A stretch of DNA of 64,000 nt from an uncultured Alphaproteobacteria bacterium. Its GTDB lineage: Bacteria > Pseudomonadota > Alphaproteobacteria > Rhizobiales > Xanthobacteraceae. Location of the stretch: positions 99,095-163,094 of the forward strand of contig CAWFNG010000008.1 in NCBI GenBank assembly GCA_963817135.1. Reading direction: 5' to 3'. Positions 5,647 through 56,274 of this stretch are shown here, in pieces. Under the pieces are notes generated by a model, which ran no database searches, had not been told where the DNA came from, and was given only the letters and a program-made list of their open reading frames with translations. A program made the position numbers and the translations under genes. How positions within the stretch are numbered: the first letter of the stretch is position 1; each line of letters begins with the position of its first letter.

Positions 5647-6897
5647 TTACCGCGAAAACCGCAGCCAATCCAGCGGCGATCTGAACGTCTGCCGATAGGG
5701 GGATCGGCGACGCGGAACGGAATTGTGAGTTGCATCGGCCGTTTGCGTCACGCTGCTTTCAGAAGCCTGTCCTTCGGAACTGGGCTGCGCCGATGCGTCG
5801 GGCGCGGCCTCTGCGGGCTTCTTTATGGCGAGCAGCAGGTTCGACTCGTTCGGCCGCCAGCGGTAGCCGATGCCGAAATCGATGGAATGGGCATTCCTGA
5901 AGAGGGCGGCATAGTTCGCCTGGTACCTGCCGGGGAAGACCCCGATCGGGCCGAGATAGCGGCCGAACGGATGCAGGTCCCACTTCTTCGGGTCGAAGTA
6001 GCGCAGCGGGACGCCGGAATCGTCCTGCACCATGGCCGCGCTGTCGGCGACGAGGAAGTCCCGCACCTTGGTGAAGCCGCCGGAGTGCAGGAGATAGGAG
6101 GCACTCTTTATGAGGCTGTCCCCGGGGCCGAGCGACTCCAAAAATTTCAGGAAGTTGCTGTTCCTGACGCCGTCGTCGGCAAGGTTGGTGCTGAAGTAAT
6201 AGAGCGTCCGTTCCTCGCCGTCGCTGCCGGCGAACACGATTTTCACGCCGCGCGCCCCGCTCCCGCGGCCCCCATCGGTATCCGGTTGCACCGCGCCCTG
6301 TTCGTCAATCTTGACCAGAGAGGCCTCGCGCACGGTCTTCCCCGAGCGCGCCAGGAATACGTAGAGGATCGGCAGCGTGCCGTTGACCCGGCCGACGTGC
6401 AGGTCCGATCTCATCCGGTGGGTGATGAAGAACGTGTGCGACAGCAGCGTGCTGATCGAGGCATGCAGGTGGTAAAGGTTCGGCGCGATCGACCCGCGCA
6501 GCGTGGTGAGGTCGGGCACCGTGCCGACCGGCTCGAGACCGGCGAGCACATAGGTCTTGGCGTTCGGATAGAAGGCATTTGCATAAAGGAAGTCAGGGCC
6601 GCTGAACATGTAGAACATGGCCGGGCGCGACGCCGTGAGATTGCTCTTTGACCAGGCGCGAATCCGGGCGAGCTGGCCTTGGTCGAGGCGGCCGAAGGCG
6701 CCGTCGAAGCTGCGGGCATGCTGCTGCCAGCTGCCGTCCTTGGTCAGCGGCGCGAGCGGCAACTCGGCGTCAACCGGCATGCCGGCGAGGAACCGCGCGG
6801 TGTCATTTGGAGATGCGGTGTCGGCGGCATGCACCGGCCCCAGTGCCGAGAAAAACAGGCCTGCTGCGGCGGCGATGATCGTTCTGCGCTGAAACAT
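5647..6897 (-). CDS. conserved hypothetical exported protein
   Basis: Long ORF with a signal-like N-terminus MFQRRTIIAAAAGLFFSALGPVHA. It lies 10 nt downstream of the permease gene on the same strand. No family recognised. Confidence 0.55.
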   Translation of the reverse strand: MFQRRTIIAAAAGLFFSALGPVHAADTASPNDTARFLAGMPVDAELPLAPLTKDGSWQQHARSFDGAFGRLDQGQLARIRAWSKSNLTASRPAMFYMFSGPDFLYANAFYPNAKTYVLAGLEPVGTVPDLTTLRGSIAPNLYHLHASISTLLSHTFFITHRMRSDLHVGRVNGTLPILYVFLARSGKTVREASLVKIDEQGAVQPDTDGGRGSGARGVKIVFAGSDGEERTLYYFSTNLADDGVRNSNFLKFLESLGPGDSLIKSASYLLHSGGFTKVRDFLVADSAAMVQDDSGVPLRYFDPKKWDLHPFGRYLGPIGVFPGRYQANYAALFRNAHSIDFGIGYRWRPNESNLLLAIKKPAEAAPDASAQPSSEGQASESSVTQTADATHNSVPRRRSPYRQTFRSPLDWLRFSR

Positions 6898-6907
6898 GTG
6901 TGCGGAC

Positions 6908-8270
6908 TCACGTTGGCGTTGCAAGGCCTGGATTTCTCCGCGACCGTGACAGGTAGTAGACGGCGAGGCCTGACGCCATCATCAGCACGCCGATGAACGA
7001 CTGCACCGGACGCTGGGTCACGAGATAGTACATCATGAACGCTGTCACCGAGAGGAAGATGACCGGCGTCACGGGATATCCCCATGCGCGATAGGGCCGC
7101 GGCAAATCAGGGCGCGTGATGCGCAGCTTGATGACCCCCAGCACCGTGAGGAACGAGCAGGCTAAGAGGCTGAACTGGATGAAGTCGAGCACCGCCTCAA
7201 AGCTTTGGGTGAGGAGCATCAGCGTCGCAACAATCGGCCTGGAACAAGATCGCGGTGGTCGGCACGCCGGCCCACGATCGGCGGGCAAACATGCGCAGCA
7301 TCGGAATGTCCTCGCCCATCGTCATCGTTACCCGCGGACCGATCCACATCATGGCGCTGATCGACGAAACAAGGCCGACGCAGATCAGCGCGCCGACGAT
7401 GCGGCCGCCGAGATCGCCGAACACATGCTTGCCGGCAATAACGGCAATATCGAGTTGCCCGGCGAGCTGATTGATCGGCGTGCTGTAGAGAAAAAGCGCG
7501 TTCAGCGCGACATAGAGCACGATGACGATCGCTGTCCCGACCAGGAGCGAACGCGGCAGGCTCCGCTGCGGGTCGTGCATCTCGCCGGCAATGTAGGTCG
7601 CGGCATTCCAGCCCGAATACGAATACATCACGAAGACGAGGCTGATTGCGAAGGATGCGCTGATCACGTACGAGGCATCGGCAGAGGACGGGGCGAATGA
7701 GATGGGCTGCGGCGTTGCGAGCGCGAACCCCGCGACCAGAAATGCGAGGATCAGAGCCACCTTCAGAACGGTCCAGGCCATCTGGAACGCGCTGCTGTAG
7801 CGGAGGCCGCGCAGTCCAACGAGCGATACGATCCAGACGACGCAGAGGCCGAGCACCAGCGGCGGAACACCCGGAAGGATCGCCTTGCCGTATTGGCCGA
7901 ACGCCATGGCGGCGAGCGCCACCGGGGCGGCAAAACCGACCGTGGCCGACAGCCAGCCCGCCAGGAAGCCCAGGGCCGGATGGTACGTCTGCCGCAGGAA
8001 ATTGTACTCGCCGCTGGAGCGGGGAAACATCGCGGCGAGCTCGCCGTAGGAAAATACCCCGCACAGCGCGACGCCACCCCCGACCACCCACAGAAGAAGC
8101 AGCGAGAAGCCGGAGGGGATTCCCTGCACCTGGAATCCAAGGCTGGTGAACACGCCGACGCCGACCATGTCGGCTACCACAATGGCAGTCGCGGTCAGCA
8201 TGGAGACGGTCAGCCGGATTGGCGGAAGTCCCGCTAAATGCGCCGGACTCCCAACGTCGATAATAGCCAT
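6908..8270 (-). pseudogene. APC-family amino acid permease, frame broken once
   Basis: ORF 7197-8291 is polytopic (..SGEYNFLRQTYHP..) and ends ..GVPTTAILFQ. It continues as IVATLMLLTQSFEAVLDFIQFSL.. in ORF 6908-7288. One extra nt near 7240 accounts for the break. Start at 8270 (MAIIDVG) has GAAGGGG 4 nt upstream. Confidence 0.65.
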
Positions 8271-8435
8271 GCGCCCCTTCCGCCGTGTCACGCCCGCATC
8301 GGATCAATCATTAAAGAAAGGCATTACTGCGCCACAACAGCGATCTAAACCATAACGATGAGTAAATTCATAACCGTAGTAAATTGATCACACATCGGCC
8401 GCCGCGCGAGCCGCAAACTCGGAATATTCCCCACC

Positions 8436-8490
8436 CGACTGCCTTCGCTTCGCTCGGCAGTCGACCTCCCCCTTTCAGGGGGAGGTTTTT
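8436..8490. repeat. REP-like double hairpin (CGACTGCC..GGCAGTCG, then ACCTCCCCC-tttca-GGGGGAGGT + T5)
   Basis: Palindromes read directly. It shares TTCGCTCG + CCTC(T)CCC-loop-GGG(A)GAGG with the unit at 13478-13516. Confidence 0.5.
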
Positions 8491-8652
8491 ACTGCATAGC
8501 TTTCCCCAGCCCCGCCATCCCGGCTCACAATACCGACATAATCTAATGTTTTCAGTACCGTGGGGCAGCTGGGGGAGTTCCGGAGAAAGGCGATCGGTGG
8601 TGTTTGCGGACTTGCCGCACACCCAGCGCGTCTGACTTGGAACTGTGTGGGG

Positions 8653-9834
8653 ATGGTATCTGCGGGATCGTCAGTCCCGAAAAGCAGCGTCACGAGTGAT
8701 TTCACGGGAGCGTGCGCGCCAAGCCTGTGGCGGCGCTGGGCGGCGATCTCGCCTGCGCTCGTCGCGCTGCCGTGTCTTCTTCTCCAGGGCTGTGGAAATT
8801 CAGAGCCCAAGACGCTCGCCAAAGCGGATGCAGCGATGCTGCTCTCCGGGTCTAGCACGCACGACGTGAGCCCCCGTGGCGTCGCGAGTGCCGACGCCGT
8901 GCAGACTGGGCCCGTGGATTCATTTGCCGACCGGTATGCCGCCGCCGACAGCTATGCTCCGAGATCCGCTCCGAAGATGGTCGTCGATCGCGTCGGAACG
9001 CTCCCGCCGGGCTCCTACAAGGTGGCCTCGCTGTCGCCGGATCTGCCCTTTGGCATGTCGGCCGTCAAGCAGGCGCACACGCATCTGATCGGCTTCGACA
9101 ACTCGGCCTTCCCGTCTCCCGGCAAGAGCTACAGCGACAACCGTGTTCTCGTCCACGTGCCCTCCGGGTTCGACGTGCGCAAACCGGGGGTCATCGTCGT
9201 ATTCTTCCACGGCCACGGCGCTACCCTCGAGCGCGACGTGCGCGACCGTCAGCTGCTGCCCAAGCAGATTTCCGAATCCGGGATCAATGCCGTGCTGGTC
9301 GCGCCGCAGCTTGCCTACGACGCCGCCGATTCCAGCGCCGGCAAGCTTGCCGAGCGCGGCGGCTTCAAGCGGTTCATGACGGAAGCGGCCGAGCATCTTG
9401 CCCGCATCTATGGGGATGCGCGCGCCACCCAGGCCTTCGCAAAGATGCCGGTGATTATTGTGGCCTATAGCGGCGGCTTCGTCTCCGCCGCCCACAGCCT
9501 GAGTGTCGGCGGTCTCGGCAAGCGCGTTCGCGGCGTGGTTCTGCTCGATGCCCTCTACGGGGAAATTGACAAGTACTCCTCGTGGATCGCCAAGAACCGC
9601 TCCGGCTTTTTCGTCAGCGCCTACACGGCGTATACCAAACGCCACGATGACGACCTCGCGAAAATCCTCCGCGACAAAGGCATCGCCGTCACCGACGAAC
9701 TCAATGGTTACCTGAAGCCGGGGACCGTTGCCTTCCTGCAAACCCCTGAAGGCGCCCGACACCGCGATTACGTCACGCTCGCCTGGACCGAGCACCCGGT
9801 GACCGACATCCTGCTGAGAATCCCGCGCCGCTGA
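8653..9834 (+). CDS. putative lipoprotein with alpha/beta-hydrolase-like core
   Basis: Lipobox LLLQGC. VIVVFFHGHG and an AYSGG nucleophile-elbow-like motif. Start codon uncertain (ORF open from 8560). Confidence 0.45.
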   Translation: MVSAGSSVPKSSVTSDFTGACAPSLWRRWAAISPALVALPCLLLQGCGNSEPKTLAKADAAMLLSGSSTHDVSPRGVASADAVQTGPVDSFADRYAAADSYAPRSAPKMVVDRVGTLPPGSYKVASLSPDLPFGMSAVKQAHTHLIGFDNSAFPSPGKSYSDNRVLVHVPSGFDVRKPGVIVVFFHGHGATLERDVRDRQLLPKQISESGINAVLVAPQLAYDAADSSAGKLAERGGFKRFMTEAAEHLARIYGDARATQAFAKMPVIIVAYSGGFVSAAHSLSVGGLGKRVRGVVLLDALYGEIDKYSSWIAKNRSGFFVSAYTAYTKRHDDDLAKILRDKGIAVTDELNGYLKPGTVAFLQTPEGARHRDYVTLAWTEHPVTDILLRIPRR

Positions 9835-9950: not shown

Positions 9951-10349
9951 TTAGGAGAGCAGGCGGACGGACTCGCCTTGCGTTTCCAGCAGCTTCACGG
10001 CCTTCTTGTCAAAGGAGACGAAGGTTTCCGCGCCGAGCCACTTGCCTTCGTAGGCAATGAGACCATCGGCGAAGTCACCGCCTGCATCGAGCAGTGCCAA
10101 TCCCGCCTCCACCGCGGGGCGGTTGACCACGACATTAGCACCATTGATCAAGCGACGGATCGCAGCCGCTATTTCGGCTGACGAGACCTTGTAGCCTTGC
10201 GAGAGCACCCAGACCAATTCGCAGAGTGCTGGTATCGCCAGCGCAACGATGTCCGCATTCGCCAGTTGCGTCTGCGCCATCCTGCTTTGTCGCGCGTCAT
10301 CTCCCATCATAGCCCGAACGAGGATGTTGGTGTCTGCGGTAATTTTCAT
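9951..10349 (-). CDS. vapC: type II toxin, PIN-domain ribonuclease VapC
   Basis: 132 aa starting MKITADTNILVRAMMGDD.. (PIN acidic residues). A 4-nt ATGA overlap links it to the upstream antitoxin ORF. Confidence 0.8.
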   Translation of the reverse strand: MKITADTNILVRAMMGDDARQSRMAQTQLANADIVALAIPALCELVWVLSQGYKVSSAEIAAAIRRLINGANVVVNRPAVEAGLALLDAGGDFADGLIAYEGKWLGAETFVSFDKKAVKLLETQGESVRLLS

Positions 10350-10597
10350 CGCCGGCCGGCCCAGCCGCGTCTGGTGATTTCATTTATTTGCTCGATCGAT
10401 AAGGAAGGGCGATTCGTCCTCTTAAAAATATCGAAGACGTCGGAAATCTTGCCAGTTGGCCGCGCCGCCCTGATTTCGATGCGACCGTCGGGGAGCCTAT
10501 GCACGGCGATTTTCCCGCCAGGCTGCACTCCCAGGTGTGCCAATAGCTCCTTGCGGAGGGTGACTTGTCCCTTTGCTGTGACGGTAAGCTCTTTCAT
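10346..10597 (-). CDS. vapB: type II antitoxin, AbrB/MazE/SpoVT-type (VapB)
   Basis: 83 aa. MKELTVTAKGQVTLRKELLAHLGV is the swapped-hairpin AbrB-like motif. Translationally coupled to vapC. Confidence 0.75.
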   Translation of the reverse strand: MKELTVTAKGQVTLRKELLAHLGVQPGGKIAVHRLPDGRIEIRAARPTGKISDVFDIFKRTNRPSLSIEQINEITRRGWAGRR

Positions 10598-10617
10598 GGC
10601 ACTACCTTAGGCCTATG

Positions 10618-25239: not shown

Positions 25240-25635
25240 TCCATTATAGATATGGAAGTGGAGGCTTCTGTTGCCAGGTGCCTCCGAACCCCGCCTGAAG
25301 CTGCTAAGACCTCAGGACTTTATTTCGGTTTTCCGAACCGCATTACGCGGCCAGGGCCACCGGAGCATAGTTGTCGTTGGCAACTATGAGTTTGGCCCGA
25401 TATCGGTGGTACCATGCCGAGCAAAAGCACGCCCTTTACGCCCTCGTCGATCCTATTTCGCCCCCGTATCAGGATTCAGGCGACAGTAATCAGTAATCAG
25501 TAGGCCTGATCTGATTACTGATTTCTGGCTTCCTGACTCCTGACTGGTGGAGGCGCCGGGTACTGCCCCCGGGTCCGAAAGGTTTATTCCGACGGCCATT
25601 TATTGCCATAGCCGGCATATGCCGGCTCCTCTAAT
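25240..25635 (-). ncRNA. ssrA: tmRNA (ssrA), circularly permuted two-piece type
   Basis: On the minus strand the acceptor piece ends ..CCGGGGGCAGUACCCGGCGCCUCCACCA (CCA = complement 25545-25547). The coding piece starts GGGGGCGAAAUAGGAUCGACG at 25465. Its acceptor pairing includes G3-U70. Tag ORF GCC AAC GAC AAC TAT GCT CCG GTG GCC CTG GCC GCG TAA (complement 25343-25381) gives ANDNYAPVALAA. The outer ends are approximate. Confidence 0.85.
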
Positions 25636-25964
25636 ATAGCCCGACACGCGCAGCAAAAAAAGACTGCCGGCGCCGTCGCCGCGGTGCCCGGGCCCGCGGA
25701 TTCGTTCCGCGCAGAACGGCGCTGGCCATCGCGCCAGCCGGTGCTCAAATTAATGGCACGCGCTCCGAACGTTCGCGCTTTGCCGTAGCCGAAACGAAAT
25801 CCCTGTGCATATTTGTCGCAGTTGCATTAAGGCGCCCGCGCCTTACGGGAACCTTAACGCGTCGTACTTGCTTCCCGCCGCCTATGGGAATGTGGTACGG
25901 ATTACAGGCGTGCAGAACCGAGCGCTAGGATCGGCGCACAGCCTGCGGCTTTGCAGGAGGGAAC

Positions 25965-41529: not shown

Positions 41530-41662
41530 CCGCCAGAGGACGGAGGACAGACGACACAGGACAGAAACAAGCCTTTCATGTATCTATTTATCTGCCAAGT
41601 GGGTTCTGCTACCGGAATGAGGCCTCTGTCATCGGTCCTCTGTCCTCCGTCGTCTGTCCTCC
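41491..41662. repeat. cluster of direct and inverted GGAGGACAGA(G/C)GAC motifs around an AT-rich core
   Basis: Left copies at 41501-41524 and 41541-41555. Inverted copies at 41622-41662 (CCTCTGTCATCGGTCCTCTGTCCTCCGTCGTCTGTCCTCCG). Confidence 0.6.
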
Positions 41663-41668
41663 GATTTC

Positions 41669-42452
41669 ATGTCCCGTCCTGCTCTTCTGGCGTTTCAGGT
41701 TCTGGTTGCTGTTGTTGCGGTGCTCATTTGGCACATTCTGACCACCGTGCCGATCGGCGGGATCAGGCTGTTGCCGCCGTTCTTCTTCTCGACCCCGTCG
41801 GACGTGGCGCTGCGTATTGGCAAGTGGCTTGCCGACGGCACGCATCTGGATGCATGTCTGGATTACGCTGGTTGAATCCGTGCTGGCATTCGTGTTCGGG
41901 TCGGTTGCCGGCATTCTCGTCGGCTTCTGGTTTGCCCGCCAGCCGCTGGTCGCTGCCGTGTTCGATCCCTACGTCAAGATGACCAACTCGCTGCCACGGG
42001 TCGTGCTGGCGCCGATATTCGCGCTGTGGCTCGGGCTCGGCATCTGGTCCAAGGTGGCGCTCGGCTTCACGCTCGTATTCCCCATCGTTTTCTTCAACGT
42101 GTACCAGGGCGTCAAAGAGGTGAGCCCCGCCATTCTTGCGAATGCCCGCATGCTCGGCATGACCGAGCGGCAGCTGATGCGGCATGTCTATTGGCCCTCG
42201 GCCCTGTCCTGGATGTTTTCATCGCTGCATACTGCCATCGGGTTTGCCATGGTGGGCGCCGTGGTCGGCGAATATCTCGGTTCGGCCGCCGGTCTCGGCT
42301 ATGTCATTCAGCAGGCCGAGGGTGTATTCGACGTGGCGGGCGTGTTCGCTGGGATGGTGGTGCTGACCGCATTTGTGCTCACACTCGACCGGCTGGTCAC
42401 GCTTGCCGAACGGCGCCTTCTGGTCTGGCGGCCGATGGAATTGCGGGCATGA
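41669..42452 (+). pseudogene. ABC transporter permease (NitT/TauT family), frame broken once
   Basis: ORF 41669-41875 (..STPSDVALRIGKWLADGT) continues as IWMHVWITLVESVLAFVFG.. in ORF 41817-42452. One extra nt near 41843 accounts for the break. An EAA-like loop is present downstream. Confidence 0.65.
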
Positions 42453-42472: not shown

Positions 42473-43492
42473 ATGAAACTGCGTTCAGCATTGCTGTTTG
42501 CCCTTGCGCTTGTGCTTTCGCTGAGCGGCATGGCGCATGGCCAGGCGATCGAGAAGAGGCAGGTCACGCTCGGCGTCGGCGGCAAGAATTCGCTCTATTA
42601 CCTGCCGGTGACCATCTGCGAGCGGCTCGGCTATTTCAAGGAGCAGGGCCTCGACGTCGCCATCAACGACTTTCGCGGCGGCGCGCAATCGCTGCAGGCG
42701 CTGGTGGGCGGCTCCGTCGACGTCGTCACCGGCGCCTATGAGCACACCATTCGCATGCAGGCGAAGGGGCAGGACATCCAGGCGGTGATCGAGCTCGGCC
42801 GCTTCCCCGGGCTGGTCGTCGGCGTGCGCATGAGCAAAGCGGCAAACTACCGGTCCGCCGCCGACCTCAAGGGAATGAAGATCGGAGTGAGCGCGCCCGG
42901 CTCATCGACGCATTTCTTCGTCATGTATTTGATGGCGAAAGCCGGCCTCAAGCCCGCCGACGCATCCTATATCGGCGTCGGCATCGGTCCGTCGGCAGTC
43001 GCTGCCATCAAGAAGGGCGAGATCGACGCGGTGGTCAATGTCGATCCGGTGATCACCAAGCTCGAGCAGGACGGCGACATCAAAGTGGTCGCCGACAGCC
43101 GAACGGAGGAGGGGACGCGCGCCATTTTCGGAGGCTCCAATCCTGCGGCCGTGCTCTACCTCAAGCATGAGTTCATCGAACGCAACCCCAATACGGTGCA
43201 GGCGCTGGTCAATGCCTTCTACAAGACGCTGAAATGGCTGGAGCGTGCAAGTCCCGAGCAGATCGCCGCGACCGTGCCGGAGGAGTTCTATCTTGGCGAC
43301 AAGACGCTTTATCTCGCGGCGGTCAAGGCCAACAAGCCGGTCTATTCCATAACCGGGATCATTCCCCCGGCTGGCATGAAATCGGCCGCCGACATGCTGC
43401 TCGCCTTCGACGAAGAGCTCAAGAGTGCCAATGTGGATCTCGCGAAGACCTTCGACGATCGTTTCGTAAAGAAGGCGGCCGGCAATATCTAG
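42473..43492 (+). CDS. ABC transporter substrate-binding protein (NMT1/THI5-like, NitT/TauT family)
   Basis: Signal peptide MKLRSALLFALALVLSLSGMAHG, SBP-like body, last gene of the ATPase-permease-SBP operon. Confidence 0.8.
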   Translation: MKLRSALLFALALVLSLSGMAHGQAIEKRQVTLGVGGKNSLYYLPVTICERLGYFKEQGLDVAINDFRGGAQSLQALVGGSVDVVTGAYEHTIRMQAKGQDIQAVIELGRFPGLVVGVRMSKAANYRSAADLKGMKIGVSAPGSSTHFFVMYLMAKAGLKPADASYIGVGIGPSAVAAIKKGEIDAVVNVDPVITKLEQDGDIKVVADSRTEEGTRAIFGGSNPAAVLYLKHEFIERNPNTVQALVNAFYKTLKWLERASPEQIAATVPEEFYLGDKTLYLAAVKANKPVYSITGIIPPAGMKSAADMLLAFDEELKSANVDLAKTFDDRFVKKAAGNI

Positions 43493-47020: not shown

Positions 47021-47483
47021 CTATTTCCCTCATCTCGCGTACAGTTTGTCGCGTCGGGACCTCGTCGGTTGCTGCGCTCAAGCAGGCAACGCGCGCAATC
47101 CCGATCATTGTCGCCATCGTCAACTCGCATGCACTAAGGGTTGAATTCGCGTCGGCTTCCGGGGCGATCCTGAAATGAATTGGCCGGTAGTCCTGACTGA
47201 CTTGGTCTCAAAATGACCCTGAACCGACACCCGGCTTGGTTAATTGCTGCGGCGCAAGGGAGCCGCAGTGTTTTCCGCTAACAATAATTTTCCGATTTCT
47301 GCAAACAGCCGGGTCGACGGTGTCCCAGGAATTGAGTTGTCGTAGGAGGCATCGAACTCGGTTCGATCTCAGAGCTAAAATTAATATTTGTTCATGGGCC
47401 GATGTGCGGATGTTCGGCCCCATTCTTGACCTAATTGCTTAGCCCGCTGCCGTAACTATCCTGTGGTTATTTCGGAGAAGGCC

Positions 47484-48507
47484 ATGGTTCGTTTGTTCGC
47501 CGGTTTTATTATCCTCGCATATGCCTGCAATGTTGCGTCCGCGCAGGAGGAGCGCGCGCTCGTGATCGACGCCTGCGACCGGCTGGCGGCAAGCGATCTC
47601 GACCGCGAGCGGCCGCCTCCCGTTCCCGGTGTGCCGGTGAACAAGATCGACGCCAAGGCGGCGGTGCCGGCGTGCGAGGCCGCGGTCAAGCTTGCGCCAG
47701 ACGATCGCCGCATCCTCTATCAGCTCGGCCGCGCCTACAACGCGGCGAAGGATTACGAGAACGCGCGCACCGTTCTCGCAAAGGCCGACGCGCTGGGCCA
47801 TGTCCTGGCGACGAACAATCTCGGGGCGCTTTATGCGGACGGCAACGGGGTGAAGGCCGATCTTGACGAAGCAAGGCGTCTTTATGAAAAGGCCGCCGCA
47901 GGCGGTGTTGCAATTGCAATGAACAATTTGGGGTCCTTCTACGAGAAGGGCAAAGGTGTGCCCCAAGACTTTGCAAAGGCGAAGCTTTGGTATGAGAAGG
48001 CAGCGGCTTCAGGAATGGCGGGTGCATGGGCGAGTATCGGCCTGCTTTACGAATACGGGCACGGCGTGCCGGTTGATTATGTCGAGGCGCGACGGTGGTT
48101 CGAAAAAGCCGCCGCGGCGGGCGACTCCGATGCAATGACCTTTATTGGTCACTTTTACGACAATGGATCAGGAAGTCCCGATCGATTACGCGGCTGCCCG
48201 CGCCTGGCACGAAAAGTCTGCCGCGCTTGGAAACGCGCTCGCGATGAACCGGATTGGCGCGCTCTACGCGGAGGGAAAGGGTGTCCTGCGCGATTACGCC
48301 GTGGCGCGAGAGTGGTTTGAGAAAGCGGCAACGCGAGGCAATATGGTAGGCATGAACAATCTGGGAAAGCTTTACGAGAATGGGTGGGTTGTTCGCCTCG
48401 ATCGCGCGGCAGCGCGCGCCTGGTACGAGAAGGCCGCCGCTGCCGGGAGCAAAGACGGCGCCGCCAACCTCGTTCGACTAAATCGTATCTATCCGGCCAA
48501 AAACTGA
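47484..48507 (+). pseudogene. secreted Sel1-repeat (SLR/TPR-like) protein, frame broken once
   Basis: ATG at 47484 with GGAGAAGG upstream and signal MVRLFAGFIILAYACNVASA. It has repeated ..A.WYEKAAA.G...AM..LG.LYE.G.GV.. units. ..AMTFIGHFYDNG continues as QEVPIDYAAARAWHEKSAALGN.. in ORF 48145-48507, with an extra T at about 48168. Confidence 0.65.
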
Positions 48508-48661
48508 GGGGGGCCGGATGATGGTTCGCATTTTTTCACGGGTGGAAGCGCGCGCACGCGGCTCTTGCTCTGCGGTGCTCGTCAAACCATCTCTGCTCGC
48601 GTGCAGCTGCCGCAGTCTTCAAGACCGATCCACCAAAACCGGCGCTCAGGGGGATTGAGCT

Positions 48662-51600
48662 ATGGCTCTCTACGACGCCTTCGTCTCCTATAGCTATGCC
48701 AACGACAAATCCGTCGCGTCGGCGCTGCAAACGACGGTGCAGAAGCTCGGCAAGCTCTGGTACCGGAGGAGGGCGCTGCGCCTTTTCGCGACGACACCAG
48801 CCTCGCCGCCGCGCCGCAGCTTTGGCCGACGATCGAGCGGGCGCTCGGAAGAGTCGCTCCACTTCATATTGCTCGCCTCTCCGCAAGCCGCCGCCTCGAA
48901 ATGGGTCAACAAGGAGGTTGCGTACTGGCTGGATCATAATTCCATCGACACACTGCTCATCGGCGTCACCCATGGCGAGCTGTTCTGGGACGACACGGCC
49001 GGCGACTTCGCCGCCCGGCGGAATCTGCCGCTGCCCTCCGTGCTTGCTGGCCGGTTTCCGAGCGAGCCGAGTTGGGTCGACCTGCGCGCCTACCGGGATG
49101 GTGCGGACAAGCGCGATGCGAAGCTCACCGAGCTTGCGGCCGACTTCGCCGCTGCCATCCGTGGTATTCCGAAAGAGGATTTGCTGTCACAGGAAGTTCG
49201 CCAGCAGCGGCGCGCCCTCACCCTGGCCTGGTCGGCGGTGGGCCTCTTGCTCGTTCTCGCCGCCGGCGCCACCGGCGCGGGCGTCCTCGCCTATCGCGCC
49301 AGCAGCAGGCGGTGTGTGCCGAGCAGCAAGCCCTCGCCGAGCGCGATACCGCGACCCGCAACTTCAAGCTCGCGAAAGCGACTGCCGACAGCCTGGTGCG
49401 CGACATCGCGATCGATCTGCGCGATGAGCCGGGAATGCGATGAACTCGATTTGGAAAATTCTGGAAACCGCGCGAACGACCTACGAGACGCTGGCGGATG
49501 CGGCGCCGGACGATGTCTCCTTGCAGCAAAGCCGCGCCGGGATGCTGCATGAATTTGGCAGCACGTATGAAAGGCTCGGTGACCTGGGCCAAGCGCTCGC
49601 GACCTATCGCGAGGATCTTGCCATCAGCACGGCAGCTGGCCGCGCGCGACAGCAACCCCCAGCGCAAGCTCGGCATTGCGTCGGCCAACCTCGCGATCGG
49701 CGATGTCCTCAGGGAGCAGGGGCAATTCGATGCAGCAGTTGCAGCCTATCGCGCGGGGCTGGCGACTAGAGCGGGCATTGGCCGAGCCGGATCGAAGCAG
49801 CGCGGCTTGGCAGCGCTACGTGGCGTGGTTCACGGAGCGCATTGGCGACGTGCTCCGGAAGCAGGGCCGGCTGGATGAAGCGCTCGCTGCATTTCGCGAC
49901 TACCTCACGATGCAAGGCCAGGCCGCTCGCAATGAGAGCGACGACGTTTCGCAGGATTGATGATAGCCTACGACCGAATAGGCAGCGTGTTGGAAACGCA
50001 GGGCAAGCTCGATGAAGCGTTGGGGACCTATCGGGAGAGCCTCGCCATCAACGAGCGCATGGCTGCGCTGAAGGCAGCGGCATGGGGGCGCAGCACGGCC
50101 CGCCGTCGCCCACGGGCAGATCGGGGACGTGCTGCGTACCAAGGGTCGCCTCGATGAGGCGCTCCAGGCTTATCGGGACGCTTTTGCGATCGACGAGCGC
50201 GTCGCCGCCGCCGATCCGAGCAACATTGTTCGACAGGGCCAACTCGAACACTGGTCGATCAGCATCGGCGACGTGCTGCGCGAACAAGGCAAGCTCGGCG
50301 ACGCCCTGAAAGCCTACCGTGCAAGTCTTGCCGTAAGGGAGCGCCTCGCTGCTGCCGATCCCAGCAACATGGAGTGGCAGCGCAACCTCATCATCGCTCA
50401 CAATCGGATCGGCAACCTGCTGGGGGATAAAAATCGGCAGGACGAGGCGATTGCCGCCTATCGCAAGAGCCTCGAATTGGCGCAGAGTCTTGCCGCCCGC
50501 GATCCCGATCATGCGCAATGGCAGGACGACCTTTTCGTTGGCTACGAAAATCTGGGCCGTCAATTGGCGCACGTCGATCGCAATGAGGAGGCGCTCGAAG
50601 CCTACCGCAACAGCCTCGCCATCGCAGAAAAGCTCGTCGCCAAGTCGGGCGGAAATCCCAGGTGGCAGTTGAAACTCTCGGGCGCCTATTATGGGATCGC
50701 CAACCTGCTGGTGGATGATCCCACCAGGCACGAGGAGGCGTTGGCAACCTATCAGAAGAGCCTCGCAATTCGCCAGCAACTCGTCGCGGCCGATCCGAGC
50801 AACACGGAATGGCAGAACTACCTGGGCGTAAACTACTCGGGCCTCGCCAAGATGCTGGTCGACGCTGGCGCGCGCGAGGAGGGGCTTGAGAACTATCGCG
50901 CCGCGGCGGGCATCTGGGAGCGTCTTGTTGCGCTCGACGGCAGCAATGTCCAATGGCAAACGCGGCTGCGCTGGATGTACAACGATATCGCCGACATCCT
51001 GAAAGGCCGCGGTGAGCTTGACGCTGCACTCCAACTCTACCGCCAAGGCTTTGCCATCGCAGCGCGCCTCGCCGCCGCCGATCCGGACAATATCGAGAGG
51101 GGGCGCGCTCTCGCGCTCGCGCACGAAAACATCGGCCACGTGCTCGAGAAGGAGGGCAAGCACGACGACGCCTTTGCGGCCTACGGCGAGAGCCTGGCGA
51201 TCCGCGAGCGTCTCGCCGCGGCTGACCCGGGCAGCACGCAAAGGCAGCGCGAGCTCTCTGTGGTGAACGAGCGCCTGGGCGATATCTATCTAAAACAAGG
51301 CAAGCTCGACGAAGCACTCAGGCAGTACCGTACCAGTCTCGATCGCATGAGTGCTCTGCGTGATGCCGGCCCCTTCAATGCTGATCTGCAGCGTTTCACC
51401 GCCGTCACCCTGACCAATATCGCCAAAATCCTCGGTCGCCAGGGCAGGCTCGACGACGCGGTCAAAGCCGACCGCGACAGCACCGAGCTGCGCACGCGCC
51501 TGGCAGCGAGCAATTCAAACAACGCAAAGTGGCAGCGTGAGCTTGCAGTGTCCCACTACAATGAGGGGGACATCCTCAAGGCGCAGGGTAAGCTCGATGA

Positions 51601-53023
51601 GACGCTTGTGGCTTACCGCAGCGGACACGCAATATGGGAGCGCCTCGTCGCCGCCGACCCAAGCAATGCCGATTGGCAGAGCGATCTTTGGACTTCTAAC
51701 AACAAAATCGCGGGTGTGCTGAAATCCCAGGGCAAGGTGCTCGAAGCGCTGCAAGCGTATCAAAGTGCGCTTGCCATTTCCCAGCGGCTCGCCTCCTTGA
51801 ACGCAGCGAATACTGTCTGGCAGAGCGATCTGGCAAGCTCCTACGAGAATGTCGGCGCGCTGCAGTTAGCGCAGGGTAAGCTGGACGATGCGCGTGATGC
51901 TTACGGGCACGGTGTTGCCGTCCGGGAACTGCTGACAACCAACACTCCAGCAAACACGCAATGGCAGCGTGGTCTTTCGGTCGCGCACAACCAACTCGGG
52001 TATGTTCTCCAGCAGCAAGGCAATTGGAACGATGCGCTGCGCGAATACAGGGATGGATTGATCGCCATCCAGCGGGCTGTTGATGCTGAGCCGACCGAAC
52101 TGCAATGGCAGTGGGACCTGGCCTTTTCTCAAAGCAAGATTGCCGACGCGCTGTTTACGCTTGGCAAGGATGAGGATGCGCTTGCGGCGCACCGCGAGGC
52201 GGCCAGAATGCGCGAAAGTGTTGTCGCTGCCGAGCCGGGTAATCCTCGGTTGCAGCATTCTCTCTTCAGTTCATACGAAAGAATAGGCAATATTCTTTTT
52301 CAACAGAAAAAGTTTGCCGATGCGCTGGAAATGTACCGCATCGGTCTGGCCATCGCCGAGCATATTGCGCCGAACGATCGCGGCAACCTCGGTCTGCAGC
52401 ACGACCTTGCGCTCATGTATGAGAAGGTCGGTCGTGGGATCAAAGCGCAGGGCAAGCCCGACGACGCGATGAAACCCTTCATCGACTCGTTAGCGGTACG
52501 AGAGCGTCTGGCCGCAGCGCACCCCGCAGATGCAGAGTTGCAAACCGAGCTTGCAGGCATTCACAGTCTCATCGGCGAACTGATGAGCGCCAAAAAAGAT
52601 TTCGCGGCGGCAATCGAAAGGTATAGCAAGGCGATTATCATCGCGCCCGCGCTTGCCGCGCCTTGGAATTCACGCTGCTGGGATCGGGCGCTGCTTGGCC
52701 AACTGGAGACCGCACTTGCTGATTGCAATGAAGCGCTGCGGCTTCAGCCTGTCAGTGCCAACGCTCTGGATAGCCGCGGCTTCGTCTATCTCAAGCTCGG
52801 CCAATTCGACAAAGCGGTCGCGGATTATGATGCGGCCCTTAGGCTCGATCCGAAACAGCCGTTTTCGCTTTACGGACGCGGCCTCGCCAAGCTTAAGAAG
52901 GGAGACCGCAGCGGCGGCGAGGACCTGACTGCAGCACTCAGGATGCAACCGGACATCGCAGAGGAATTCGCCCGTTATGGCGTTACGGGTCACCGCGAGC
53001 TCGGGCTGGCCAAGAGCCCATGA
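48662..53023 (+). pseudogene. TIR domain - TM helix - ~22 x 42-aa TPR-like repeats + 3 canonical TPRs; about nine frame changes in the first 1.45 kb
   Basis: TIR-like N-terminus (ALYDAFVSYSYANDKS.., ..HFILLASPQAAASKWVNKEVAYWL). TM helix LTLAWSAVGLLLVLAAGATGAGVLAY. The repeat unit is ..AAADPSN..WQRDL......IGDVL..QGKLDEAL.AYR.SLAI.ERL. The protein reads continuously only by switching among ORFs 48662-, 49072-, 49440-, 49498-, 49676-, 49957-, 50082- and 50129-53023. Confidence 0.6.
50129..53023 (+). CDS. intact 964-codon TPR-repeat ORF (3' two-thirds of the TIR-TPR gene)
   Basis: Uninterrupted ORF of 17 long TPR-like units plus C-terminal classical TPRs. The GTG at 50129 is only a formal start, because homology-like periodicity continues upstream in other frames. 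Confidence 0.5.
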   Translation: MLRTKGRLDEALQAYRDAFAIDERVAAADPSNIVRQGQLEHWSISIGDVLREQGKLGDALKAYRASLAVRERLAAADPSNMEWQRNLIIAHNRIGNLLGDKNRQDEAIAAYRKSLELAQSLAARDPDHAQWQDDLFVGYENLGRQLAHVDRNEEALEAYRNSLAIAEKLVAKSGGNPRWQLKLSGAYYGIANLLVDDPTRHEEALATYQKSLAIRQQLVAADPSNTEWQNYLGVNYSGLAKMLVDAGAREEGLENYRAAAGIWERLVALDGSNVQWQTRLRWMYNDIADILKGRGELDAALQLYRQGFAIAARLAAADPDNIERGRALALAHENIGHVLEKEGKHDDAFAAYGESLAIRERLAAADPGSTQRQRELSVVNERLGDIYLKQGKLDEALRQYRTSLDRMSALRDAGPFNADLQRFTAVTLTNIAKILGRQGRLDDAVKADRDSTELRTRLAASNSNNAKWQRELAVSHYNEGDILKAQGKLDETLVAYRSGHAIWERLVAADPSNADWQSDLWTSNNKIAGVLKSQGKVLEALQAYQSALAISQRLASLNAANTVWQSDLASSYENVGALQLAQGKLDDARDAYGHGVAVRELLTTNTPANTQWQRGLSVAHNQLGYVLQQQGNWNDALREYRDGLIAIQRAVDAEPTELQWQWDLAFSQSKIADALFTLGKDEDALAAHREAARMRESVVAAEPGNPRLQHSLFSSYERIGNILFQQKKFADALEMYRIGLAIAEHIAPNDRGNLGLQHDLALMYEKVGRGIKAQGKPDDAMKPFIDSLAVRERLAAAHPADAELQTELAGIHSLIGELMSAKKDFAAAIERYSKAIIIAPALAAPWNSRCWDRALLGQLETALADCNEALRLQPVSANALDSRGFVYLKLGQFDKAVADYDAALRLDPKQPFSLYGRGLAKLKKGDRSGGEDLTAALRMQPDIAEEFARYGVTGHRELGLAKSP

Positions 53024-54999: not shown

Positions 55000-56274
55000 T
55001 TAGCGAGCAATCAAACCAATAGTATTCTGACCGCCTTCTTGTGCAGTAGGATCAAGCGTAAATAGCTCCTGAGGGTGTGTGACGCCGCGCAGCGCGTATC
55101 GTCCTACCGAAACGAGGCGGCGGTTCATGCCGCCGACATTGGCAAACGCCGACGACATCAGAACGGGCTGATCGACCGAACGGCACATCGCTGCAATGCG
55201 GCTTGCTTCGTTCACCGCCGGGCCAGTGACGGTAAAGTCCAGCCGCTCGCGGCTTCCGACATTGCCATAGAAAACTTCGCCGACATGCAAACCGAGATAC
55301 ATGTCGGTTATGGGCTTGCTGTCGGCCACCCGGCGCCTGTTCAATTCGATAATGCCCTCGCGCGCAGCGACCGCCGCGGACAATGCCGCGCCGCATGCGT
55401 GCGTGCGATATTCCGCGGGAAAGATGGCAAGCGTACCGTCGCCGATCAGCTTGAGTACATCACCGCCATGCTCGTGAATTGCAGAGACGATCGCATCGGA
55501 GTAGTCGTTCAGTAAGGGGATTACCTGTTCCGGTGCAGTGTCGGTGATACGCGTGAACCCTCGCAAATCGCTGAACCAAATGACAGCCTCAATTCGCTCG
55601 GCAATTCCCCGCACGATCCGTCCGCTGAGCACGCGCCGACCGGCGTCGCGACCGAGATACGTTTCCATCAGCGTTCCGGTCATGCGCGCGAGCGATACCG
55701 ATTTGATGGCGAGCGCGAGATATGGCGCGATGCGCTGAAGCGCGGCAATTTGCTCGTCGCCGAACCCATCGGGTACCCTTGTCGCCCATGACGAGTACAC
55801 GCCATCCATCTCGCCGATGGTACCTTCAGCGGCAAAGCGGCTGATTATCGCGACGTAGTCGGTCATCCCCGCTGCGCGCAGGTCTGCCAGCACCGCGAAC
55901 TCGTCTTTGGTTGTGGCGTTCAGGCGCCGGCGCAGAAACGAGCCGCCAGTTTGTAGCATCTTGTAGAATGGGCTGCGTCTCCAGCGCTCGGCCGCCTCGA
56001 CATCCTGCGGATCGGAGCCGGACGCAGCGAGCGCGTCTGGGCTGGTGCGGCCGTATTCGACCAGTGGCGATTCGGTGGGGCCATAGCCCCAGCGGAACAC
56101 GCGGCCCTCGTGGACTGGGTGCAGCGTGTCAATGAGCACTAGAGCGCGAGCAAGCGGGAGCCCAGCCTCGACGCAACGGTCGCAAAACCCAGACACGATG
56201 TCGGTTTCTGACGTGCCGGCGAGGCCAGCGTGGGTCAGCCATGCTGACAATTCGGCGAAAAAGGCTTCGTTCAT
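55000..56274 (-). CDS. class III adenylate/guanylate cyclase with N-terminal sensor-like domain
   Basis: CYCc catalytic core ..VIWFSDLRGFTRI..LKLIGDGTLAIF..LHVGEVFYGNVGS..RLDFTVTGPAVNEASRI... Confidence 0.85.
   Translation of the reverse strand: MNEAFFAELSAWLTHAGLAGTSETDIVSGFCDRCVEAGLPLARALVLIDTLHPVHEGRVFRWGYGPTESPLVEYGRTSPDALAASGSDPQDVEAAERWRRSPFYKMLQTGGSFLRRRLNATTKDEFAVLADLRAAGMTDYVAIISRFAAEGTIGEMDGVYSSWATRVPDGFGDEQIAALQRIAPYLALAIKSVSLARMTGTLMETYLGRDAGRRVLSGRIVRGIAERIEAVIWFSDLRGFTRITDTAPEQVIPLLNDYSDAIVSAIHEHGGDVLKLIGDGTLAIFPAEYRTHACGAALSAAVAAREGIIELNRRRVADSKPITDMYLGLHVGEVFYGNVGSRERLDFTVTGPAVNEASRIAAMCRSVDQPVLMSSAFANVGGMNRRLVSVGRYALRGVTHPQELFTLDPTAQEGGQNTIGLIAR

Follow-up and report, generated by a model that had tools for sequence, protein, structure and literature searches.

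The window analysed here is a 64,000-nt stretch of contig CAWFNG010000008.1 (positions 99,095 to 163,094, forward strand; assembly GCA_963817135.1) from an uncultured alphaproteobacterium of the family Xanthobacteraceae, and the plus-strand gene at 48662 to 53023 is the subject of this report. As judged from sequence and predicted fold, the N-terminus of its product is a domain of the Toll/interleukin-1 receptor (TIR) class with a catalytic-type glutamate; it is followed by a single predicted transmembrane (TM) helix and a long array of tetratricopeptide repeats (TPRs). The gene, a very long one and probably intact, belongs to a large family of soil alphaproteobacteria that is uncharacterised. 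In the assembly it is broken by nine frame changes, which, together with one in the neighbouring Sel1-repeat gene, are attributed on balance, at slightly better than even chances, to consensus errors in a near-raw patch of about 2 kb, the gene being intact in the organism.

The frame-corrected product and its family

The gene was read by three-frame translation and by frameshift-aware protein-to-DNA alignment to an intact relative (P0001), which give one continuous reading from the ATG at 48662 to the stop at 53023 and a corrected product of 1,453 aa. Uncorrected, the locus is a chain of short overlapping plus-strand open reading frames (ORFs) running into an ORF of 964 codons (three-frame translation of 48600–50250 and the ORF list). 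A first-pass annotation, made from the letters of the window, had read a single protein over this interval, composed of a TIR-like domain, one TM helix, a linker and repeats, and both the translation and the alignment agree with it. All features of the gene given below lie on the plus strand.

The TIR domain (about aa 1–145) occupies 48662–49100, as placed by Pfam after correction, by a PDB profile search and by an AlphaFold2 (AF2) model of the family, and holds the frame changes at ~48782 and ~48850. Pfam membership was decided by the curated gathering cut-off. The corrected N-terminus scored 29.9 bits with ThsB_TIR (PF08937; cut-off 21.2) and 29.0 bits with TIR_2 (PF13676; cut-off 28), whereas the uncorrected ORF scored 20.4 and 18.5 bits, both under the cut-offs. 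A 19-sequence profile of the first 205 family residues, run against the PDB, placed the family closest in sequence to plant TIRs (3JRN, E = 1.3e-6; RUN1, L6, RPV1), with the bacterial TIRs PdTIR, AbTir and TcpB ranking after them. The AF2 model of the family N-terminal module (pLDDT 86.1, pTM 0.80), in which the first sequence was P0001 and not the window protein itself, adopts a flavodoxin-like TIR fold, and nearly all of its Foldseek matches in the PDB are TIR domains, with target-normalised TM-scores of 0.55–0.68; the TIRs of TLR1, TLR10, IL-1RAcP and MyD88 are among them.

The putative catalytic Glu is encoded by the GAG codon at 48914–48916, within the motif SKWVNK-E-V. This residue (E85) is invariant in 19/19 family sequences of alignment A1, is present in the window protein, and in the PDB profile alignment falls on the Glu of SRWCLDEL (RUN1/RPV1) and SSWCLDEL (AtTIR). 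The Glu of this plant motif (E100 of RUN1) is an established catalytic residue. PDB entry 7S2Z is the RUN1 E100A mutant with bound NAD. The TIR identity of the N-terminus, for which a Pfam search of the corrected translation had been proposed as a check, and the presence of the Glu of NAD+-cleaving (NADase) TIRs had both been claimed in the first-pass annotation; the Pfam scores, the PDB profile, the predicted fold and the family alignment bear them out.

The TIR domain is joined to the membrane helix by a conserved juxtamembrane segment (49101–49213; …ELAADFAAAIRGIPKEDLLSQEVRQQRR), the motif of which (…FAAAIRGxPKEDLLSQEVRQQRR) is near-invariant across the family in alignment A1; the family AF2 model has helices at 153–167 and 171–204 in this region. 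The single membrane helix, ALTLAWSAVGLLLVLAAGATGAGVLAY, predicted from hydropathy at 49214–49297 (~aa 184–213), is the sole peak above 1.6 in the corrected protein and has the same position in all relatives. Lysine plus arginine counts are mostly higher on its N-side flank (~4 versus 2), and these charges weakly favour a cytoplasmic TIR domain and an extracytoplasmic array. A helical, coiled-coil-like linker follows at 49298–49530 and contains the frame changes at ~49298 and ~49441. The TPR_10/TPR_12-type array, delimited by a unit hidden Markov model (HMM), by DNA repeat spacing and by Pfam (TPR_12, 5.7e-54), spans 49530–52660 with ~21–22 units of 48 aa (144 nt), so the earlier count of about 22 units stands while the unit length of 42 aa that went with it does not. 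The array continues through the uninterrupted 964-codon ORF (50129–53023), which keeps the frame of the ATG at 48662 and is taken here as part of the same gene. At the C-terminus (52655–52960) lie about three classical 34-aa TPRs, the number reported before, for which the best stretches of Pfam TPR_1, TPR_2, TPR_11, TPR_16 and TPR_17 are aa 857–925 of the 964-aa ORF. Neither the first 474 aa of the corrected protein nor its last 964 aa gave a Pfam match to an NTPase domain (NACHT, NB-ARC or AAA_16).

The TIR-TM-TPR architecture is no rarity. For the N-terminal module, 513 homologues are on record (E <= 1e-5), none of them characterised, mostly from soil metagenomes and from metagenome-assembled genomes (MAGs) of Xanthobacteraceae and other Alphaproteobacteria, and relatives of ~40% identity were found by genome scan in Nocardia, Mycobacterium and Acidimicrobiia. 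Over 323 aa the corrected window protein shares 71% identity with P0001 (E = 1e-145), and it carries the family signature of an N-terminal TIR, the PKEDLLSQEVRQQRR motif, a helix at ~aa 185–205 and a repeat array, in register with all relatives. Family members are annotated in databases as 'toll/interleukin-1 receptor domain-containing protein' or 'TPR repeat protein', and in one match (P0120) WD40 repeats stand in place of the TPRs. Intact relatives in the fetched loci are 582–958 aa long, the longest, of 958 aa, being in locus L001; to the question of the first-pass annotation whether intact orthologues exist, the answer is that intact relatives do. A close allele of the window gene was not found, the best identity being 63% in the genome scan, 43–47% in the protein search with the 964-aa ORF and 39% in the one metagenome scan. 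The nearest relatives of the array are those of STAND-type proteins with AAA_16, NACHT, NB-ARC, DUF4062 or TIR_2 heads (43–47% identity). PADLOC and NCBIfam hold no model for the family and gave weak generic TIR or TPR matches only, in keeping with the earlier remark that this architecture lies outside the characterised defence systems, and no TIR-TM-TPR protein without an NTPase was found described in the open-access papers and bioRxiv preprints searched.

The frame changes and their explanation

Relative to intact P0001 and L001, nine disrupting lesions were identified between 48782 and 50100: -1 at ~48782, +1 at ~48850, -1 at ~49298 (CCC to CC), -1 at ~49441, +1 (or -2) at ~49626, +1 at ~49765, -1 at ~49958 (TTT to TT), -1 at ~50065 and -1 at ~50100, the last five falling in the first four to five TPR units. 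The net frame change is -3, which puts the ATG at 48662 and the 964-codon ORF in one frame. Changes one and two compensate each other, producing a 296-aa ORF (48662–49552) in which ~21 codons of the TIR core are out of frame and FATTPASPPRRSFGRRSSGRS stands where FRDDTSLAAAPQLWPTIERAL is expected; P0004, a public protein known from a single NCBI/ENA contig (285,844 bp), is exactly this ORF. No in-frame stop by substitution was found in the corrected reading by three-frame translation or by the P0001 alignment. In DNA repeat family D1, successive copies start 144, 144, 144, 147, 432, 144, 144 and 144 nt apart in the open stretch, all multiples of three, and 142, 145, 137 and 142 nt apart where the gene is broken; since non-triplet spacing is confined to the latter part, the frame changes are genuine insertions and deletions when set against an ancestral array that was in frame. 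The nine switch positions listed in the first-pass annotation lie within a few bases of those given here, and its further observations, that the first two switches compensate each other at the cost of the TIR core and that 964 codons downstream are uninterrupted, are reproduced in the 296-aa ORF and the ORF at 50129–53023.

The damage probably extends beyond the limits of the gene. The Sel1-repeat gene immediately upstream (47463–48507, +) is split by a +1 frameshift at ~48163 (GGAAGTC); its two overlapping ORFs both match Pfam Sel1, and the coding signal changes frame at 48163/48164. The N-terminus of the Sel1 protein resembles a signal peptide. The probability of this frameshift as an unrelated background event is 0.035, and the lesion zone of the TIR gene probably has its upstream limit here. 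Taken in this way, the zone covers 48163–50100, a stretch of 1,937 nt with 10 frame changes, or ~100 times the background of the window, and with lower repeat-unit conformity. The background is ~1 frameshift per 19.5 kb in ordinary genes, a rate unusual in a finished genome and typical of an unpolished long-read assembly. It is made up of single frameshifts in an AraC-family regulator (590–1687, +; ~1380, …LATLAGVAG | SIHHFARGFKQSAGVTPHHYL…), where a G is probably missing from a G-run, in an amino-acid permease (8291–6908, -; ~7234, …AILFQA | IVATLMLLTQSFEAVLDF…), the C-terminal part of which continues in another frame to 6908, and in an ABC-transporter permease (41642–42452, +; ~41850) in an operon with an NMT1-type binding protein (42473–43492). 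These three further frameshifts in ordinary genes indicate that the assembly carries indel errors. The statement of the first-pass annotation that the neighbouring genes are intact is thus only partly true, given the frameshifts at ~48163, ~1380, ~7234 and ~41850, and the exclusion of sequencing error that it had built on intact neighbours does not survive this background and the similar damage in assemblies of relatives. One further candidate frameshift, at ~10400 (-), was rejected, as the site is a normal VapB/VapC pair.

From the three frameshifts in the other 58.4 kb, 0.075 lesions would be expected in the 5' 1.47 kb of the gene, and the probability of nine or more is 2e-16. If lesions were uniform over the gene, the probability of all nine falling in its 5' third would be 5.5e-5. 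That the 2.9 kb downstream is free of lesions agrees with the background rate (P(0) = 0.86); the density of lesions in the 5' part would have put 17.8 of them there (P(0) = 2e-8). Indel density in the zone, counting the 10 frame changes and extra losses of 3 to 6 nt within units, is ~0.5–1%, which by our own estimate is of the order of raw long-read error. Homopolymer density did not differ between the inside and the outside of the zone, no tandem near-identical repeats were found at the locus and no direct or inverted repeats bounding the zone, and its GC content is not distinctive; none of these sequence-intrinsic features explains the cluster. The zone is positional rather than functional, as it probably begins in the neighbouring gene, continues over intergenic DNA, TIR domain and membrane helix, and breaks off abruptly within the repeat array after four to five units.

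Consensus error is the likeliest account of the cluster, at little more than even chances. A near-raw consensus may have been left where usable depth fell locally or where reads were mapped ambiguously at the polishing step, the TIR module being apparently multi-copy and strain-variable. Closest relatives of the window gene are on ENA ERZ25039xxx contigs and on contigs of 'MFD' MAGs. The Microflora Danica assemblies are described as Nanopore-only, made with Flye and then polished once with Medaka to lower the number of indel errors (PMC12313526). Ordinary genes are likewise split on the contigs of relatives, namely a molybdopterin oxidoreductase in L016 and DIOX_N|2OG-FeII_Oxy and GAF|HATPase_c genes in L018. 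In L017 at least three frame changes fall in the last 1.1 kb of a TPR array (7300–8408) at the end of a 368-kb Nanopore contig, where low coverage is expected, while the preceding 7 kb and the upstream genes look clean; local error clusters thus do occur in such data. The locus serves mainly as a caution, its striking pattern of seemingly effector-specific decay being most simply a locally bad consensus in a long-read metagenome assembly.

Several findings weigh against consensus error and in favour of a genuine pseudogene, in which the organism carries a decayed TIR-TM-TPR gene beside a decayed Sel1 gene, with indels and substitutions accumulated after loss of function. The corrected TIR domain deviates at 9 of the 115 columns that are >=90% conserved, against a family median of 3; the deviating positions include H12Y, T51A and F155L, as well as K137S, which needs two base changes, and such changes resemble relaxed or divergent evolution more than they do the noise of indels alone. 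The repeat units in the zone, the first four of which are degraded, score 11–53 bits with the unit HMM versus 60–79 outside. The Nanopore-only origin of the window assembly is something that we infer. Genuinely broken copies of the family probably exist: broken relatives recur in L010, L011, L016, L005 (an in-frame stop), L008 (an out-of-frame tail) and L014 (two TIR frameshifts), and L014 is from a short-read (k141) assembly, a provenance implied by its MEGAHIT-style contig name, and should be free of the indel errors of long reads. Among 14 relatives ~7 lesions were counted in the first ~1 kb, which is higher than the ~1 per 11 kb from split ordinary genes in three flanks, a baseline that rests only on Pfam-split genes in L016–L018, and the comparison is confounded by error-prone assemblies and by the choice of loci. 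On the other side, decay would have to have placed nine lesions in the 5' third and none in the 964 codons behind it, at the improbable values given above, and without a single in-frame stop by substitution, and the isolated frameshifts in transport and regulator genes of the window point to assembly error. A genuine pseudogene is on this evidence a possible but doubtful explanation. Decay or mis-assembly had been the pair of options offered in the first-pass annotation, and that was the right pair.

The broken relatives include two loci of interest in themselves. In L014 (5821–6778; Xanthobacteraceae MAG, contig k141_8813559) the TIR frame is shifted by -1 deletions at ~6064 and ~6234, both TGGGT to TGGT. 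In L016 the TIR gene (8001–9086) goes out of frame just past the membrane helix, no TPR array follows it, and a second short TIR-like fragment with 78% nucleotide identity to the window TIR lies ~1.5 kb upstream (6352–6533), which suggests duplication and decay of the TIR module. A homology-free six-frame Viterbi frameshift detector was dropped, as it missed known cases in the window and called antisense shadows.

The explanation preferred in the first-pass annotation was selective inactivation of a toxic TIR effector, with a functional TPR-only protein retained from ~50129. TIR NADases are toxic when active, and the effector end is indeed damaged while the 964-codon ORF stays open. The lesions nevertheless span four to five TPR units and probably the upstream gene too, and so do not keep to the effector half; at the background rate no selection is required for 2.9 kb to stay open; and one disabling mutation would suffice where nine are found. 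A product begun at 50129 would also be without the membrane helix and would presumably miss the compartment in which the full-length array lies, and in our reading of the sequence no convincing ribosome-binding site precedes the GTG at 50129, which is directly preceded by GGGGAC. Of these accounts, selective silencing that spared the array has the least support and is considered very unlikely. Still smaller is the chance given to a chimeric mis-join, by which a TIR-TM-TPR gene of ~500–600 aa was fused through the 144-nt repeats to a longer TPR-array gene, the damage marking a poorly supported join. Repeat arrays are classic sites of mis-joining, the corrected 1,453 aa far exceed the intact relatives of the examined loci, and the C-terminal array is most similar to those of STAND-type proteins; but the repeats are only 60–80% identical in DNA, with no long near-identical copies, the damage begins 0.5 kb upstream of the gene and covers 2 kb rather than a single junction, repeat phase is continuous over the boundary, and TIR_2-containing proteins of 1,100–1,500 aa with the same type of array are among the matches.

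Relation to known TIR systems and a proposed mechanism

The gene is a variation on the known theme of a TIR effector with a repeat sensor. With the NADase or signal-generating TIRs (ThsB, AbTir, PdTIR and SPARTA TIR-APAZ, and the plant RUN1, L6 and AtTIR) the family shares the fold and the S-x-W-x-x-x-E motif; it differs from them in the attachment of the TIR to a membrane helix and a very large TPR array, and its enzymatic activity is putative. PADLOC ThsB matches of the window gene reach only 14–22 bits, and no ThsA-type effector (SIR2/SLOG, Macro or TM) as in Thoeris lies beside the window gene or in L016–L018. The STAND or NLR-like proteins (TIR-NB-ARC-TPR, Avs-like, DUF4062-AAA_16-TPR) have the same 48-aa TPR array, 43–47% identical, in some cases with an N-terminal TIR_2, and share with the window protein the logic of an effector head and a repeat sensor. 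The window protein, in contrast, has a membrane helix at the position of the NTPase, so that its activation cannot rely on a nucleotide switch, and its head and array are probably in different compartments.

The Toll-like and IL-1 receptors share the logic of a repeat ectodomain, a single-pass helix and a cytoplasmic TIR, as far as the topology of the window protein can be read from its flanking charges. The order is reversed in the window protein, which has an N-terminal TIR (type II), TPRs rather than leucine-rich repeats (LRR) or immunoglobulin (Ig) domains, and a catalytic-type Glu, and the likeness of the whole architectures is one of logic only, without sign of common descent. BcTir/BcTpr of Bacillus cereus is a two-gene, NAD+-linked anti-phage system of separate soluble proteins, in which the NADase activity is reported for the N-terminal glycosidase domain of BcTpr and not for BcTir (bioRxiv 10.1101/2023.05.26.542521). 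It likewise pairs a TIR with a TPR protein, where the window gene encodes one membrane-anchored polypeptide; the two are likened here by description, not by sequence comparison.

By the positive-inside rule, applied to the flanking charges only, the TIR domain would face the cytoplasm and the TPR array the periplasm, where the array would act as a ligand-sensing or scaffolding part. Clustering driven by a ligand or scaffold would bring TIR domains together. In characterised TIRs, self-association switches on NAD+ cleavage, and the outcome here would be NAD+ depletion or an ADP-ribose (ADPR)-derived signal, with neither an NTPase switch nor a partner gene involved. Counting against this arrangement, TPRs of this type are typically found in STAND proteins of the cytoplasm, and support for a periplasmic array is weak. 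Some family members have at their end a module similar to the lipoprotein NlpI: in L001 (12300–12877) it is an NCBIfam match (52 bits, far under the 250-bit cut-off), and in L018 (~8700–9300) the resemblance was seen only by eye in the translation; such ends are a weak hint of a periplasmic array.

A broader proposal is that TIR-TM-TPR proteins are widespread bacterial transmembrane TIR receptors, NTPase-free, with a periplasmic array that senses an envelope or extracellular cue and turns on a cytoplasmic, NAD+-cleaving TIR, and that the lesions are real and represent repeated evolutionary silencing of a costly effector. In this proposal the lesions are taken as real because they recur across assemblies (the window, L010, L011, L016, L005 and L014); as a whole it is regarded as improbable. 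Should the topology be right, the family would be one of bacterial transmembrane TIR receptors with Toll-like-receptor logic and would be of greater interest than the locus itself, the interest of which is modest. The family, with hundreds of soil-alphaproteobacterial members, relatives in Actinobacteria, and a catalytic-type TIR combined with a membrane helix and an array, merits attention.

Genomic context and other features of the window

The neighbours of the gene in the window encode the Sel1 protein, a Meth_synt_2 protein, a dehydrogenase, a cyclase, an outer membrane protein (OMP), a two-component system and a patatin, so that the context is one of metabolic, transport and signalling genes and is not a defence island. 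No recurring partner gene was found among the loci of four relatives (L001 and L016–L018), the flanks of L001, judged from ORF translations, looking unrelated. Synteny with L016, the closest TIR (78%), was considered and rejected, as only the TIR module aligns at the DNA level. An adenylate/guanylate cyclase lies a few kb from the TIR-TPR gene both in the window (55000–56274, -) and in L018 (375–2105); this is probably coincidence, such cyclases being numerous in these genomes.

Elsewhere in the window, the VapB (AbrB/MazE-like)/VapC (PIN) toxin-antitoxin pair at 9951–10606 (-), flagged first by the coding-signal scan, is intact. A permuted alphaproteobacterial transfer-messenger RNA (tmRNA), which places the window in the Alphaproteobacteria, was identified at 25257–25665 (-) by Rfam (RF01849, 306 bits), with the tag peptide ANDNYAPVALAA.

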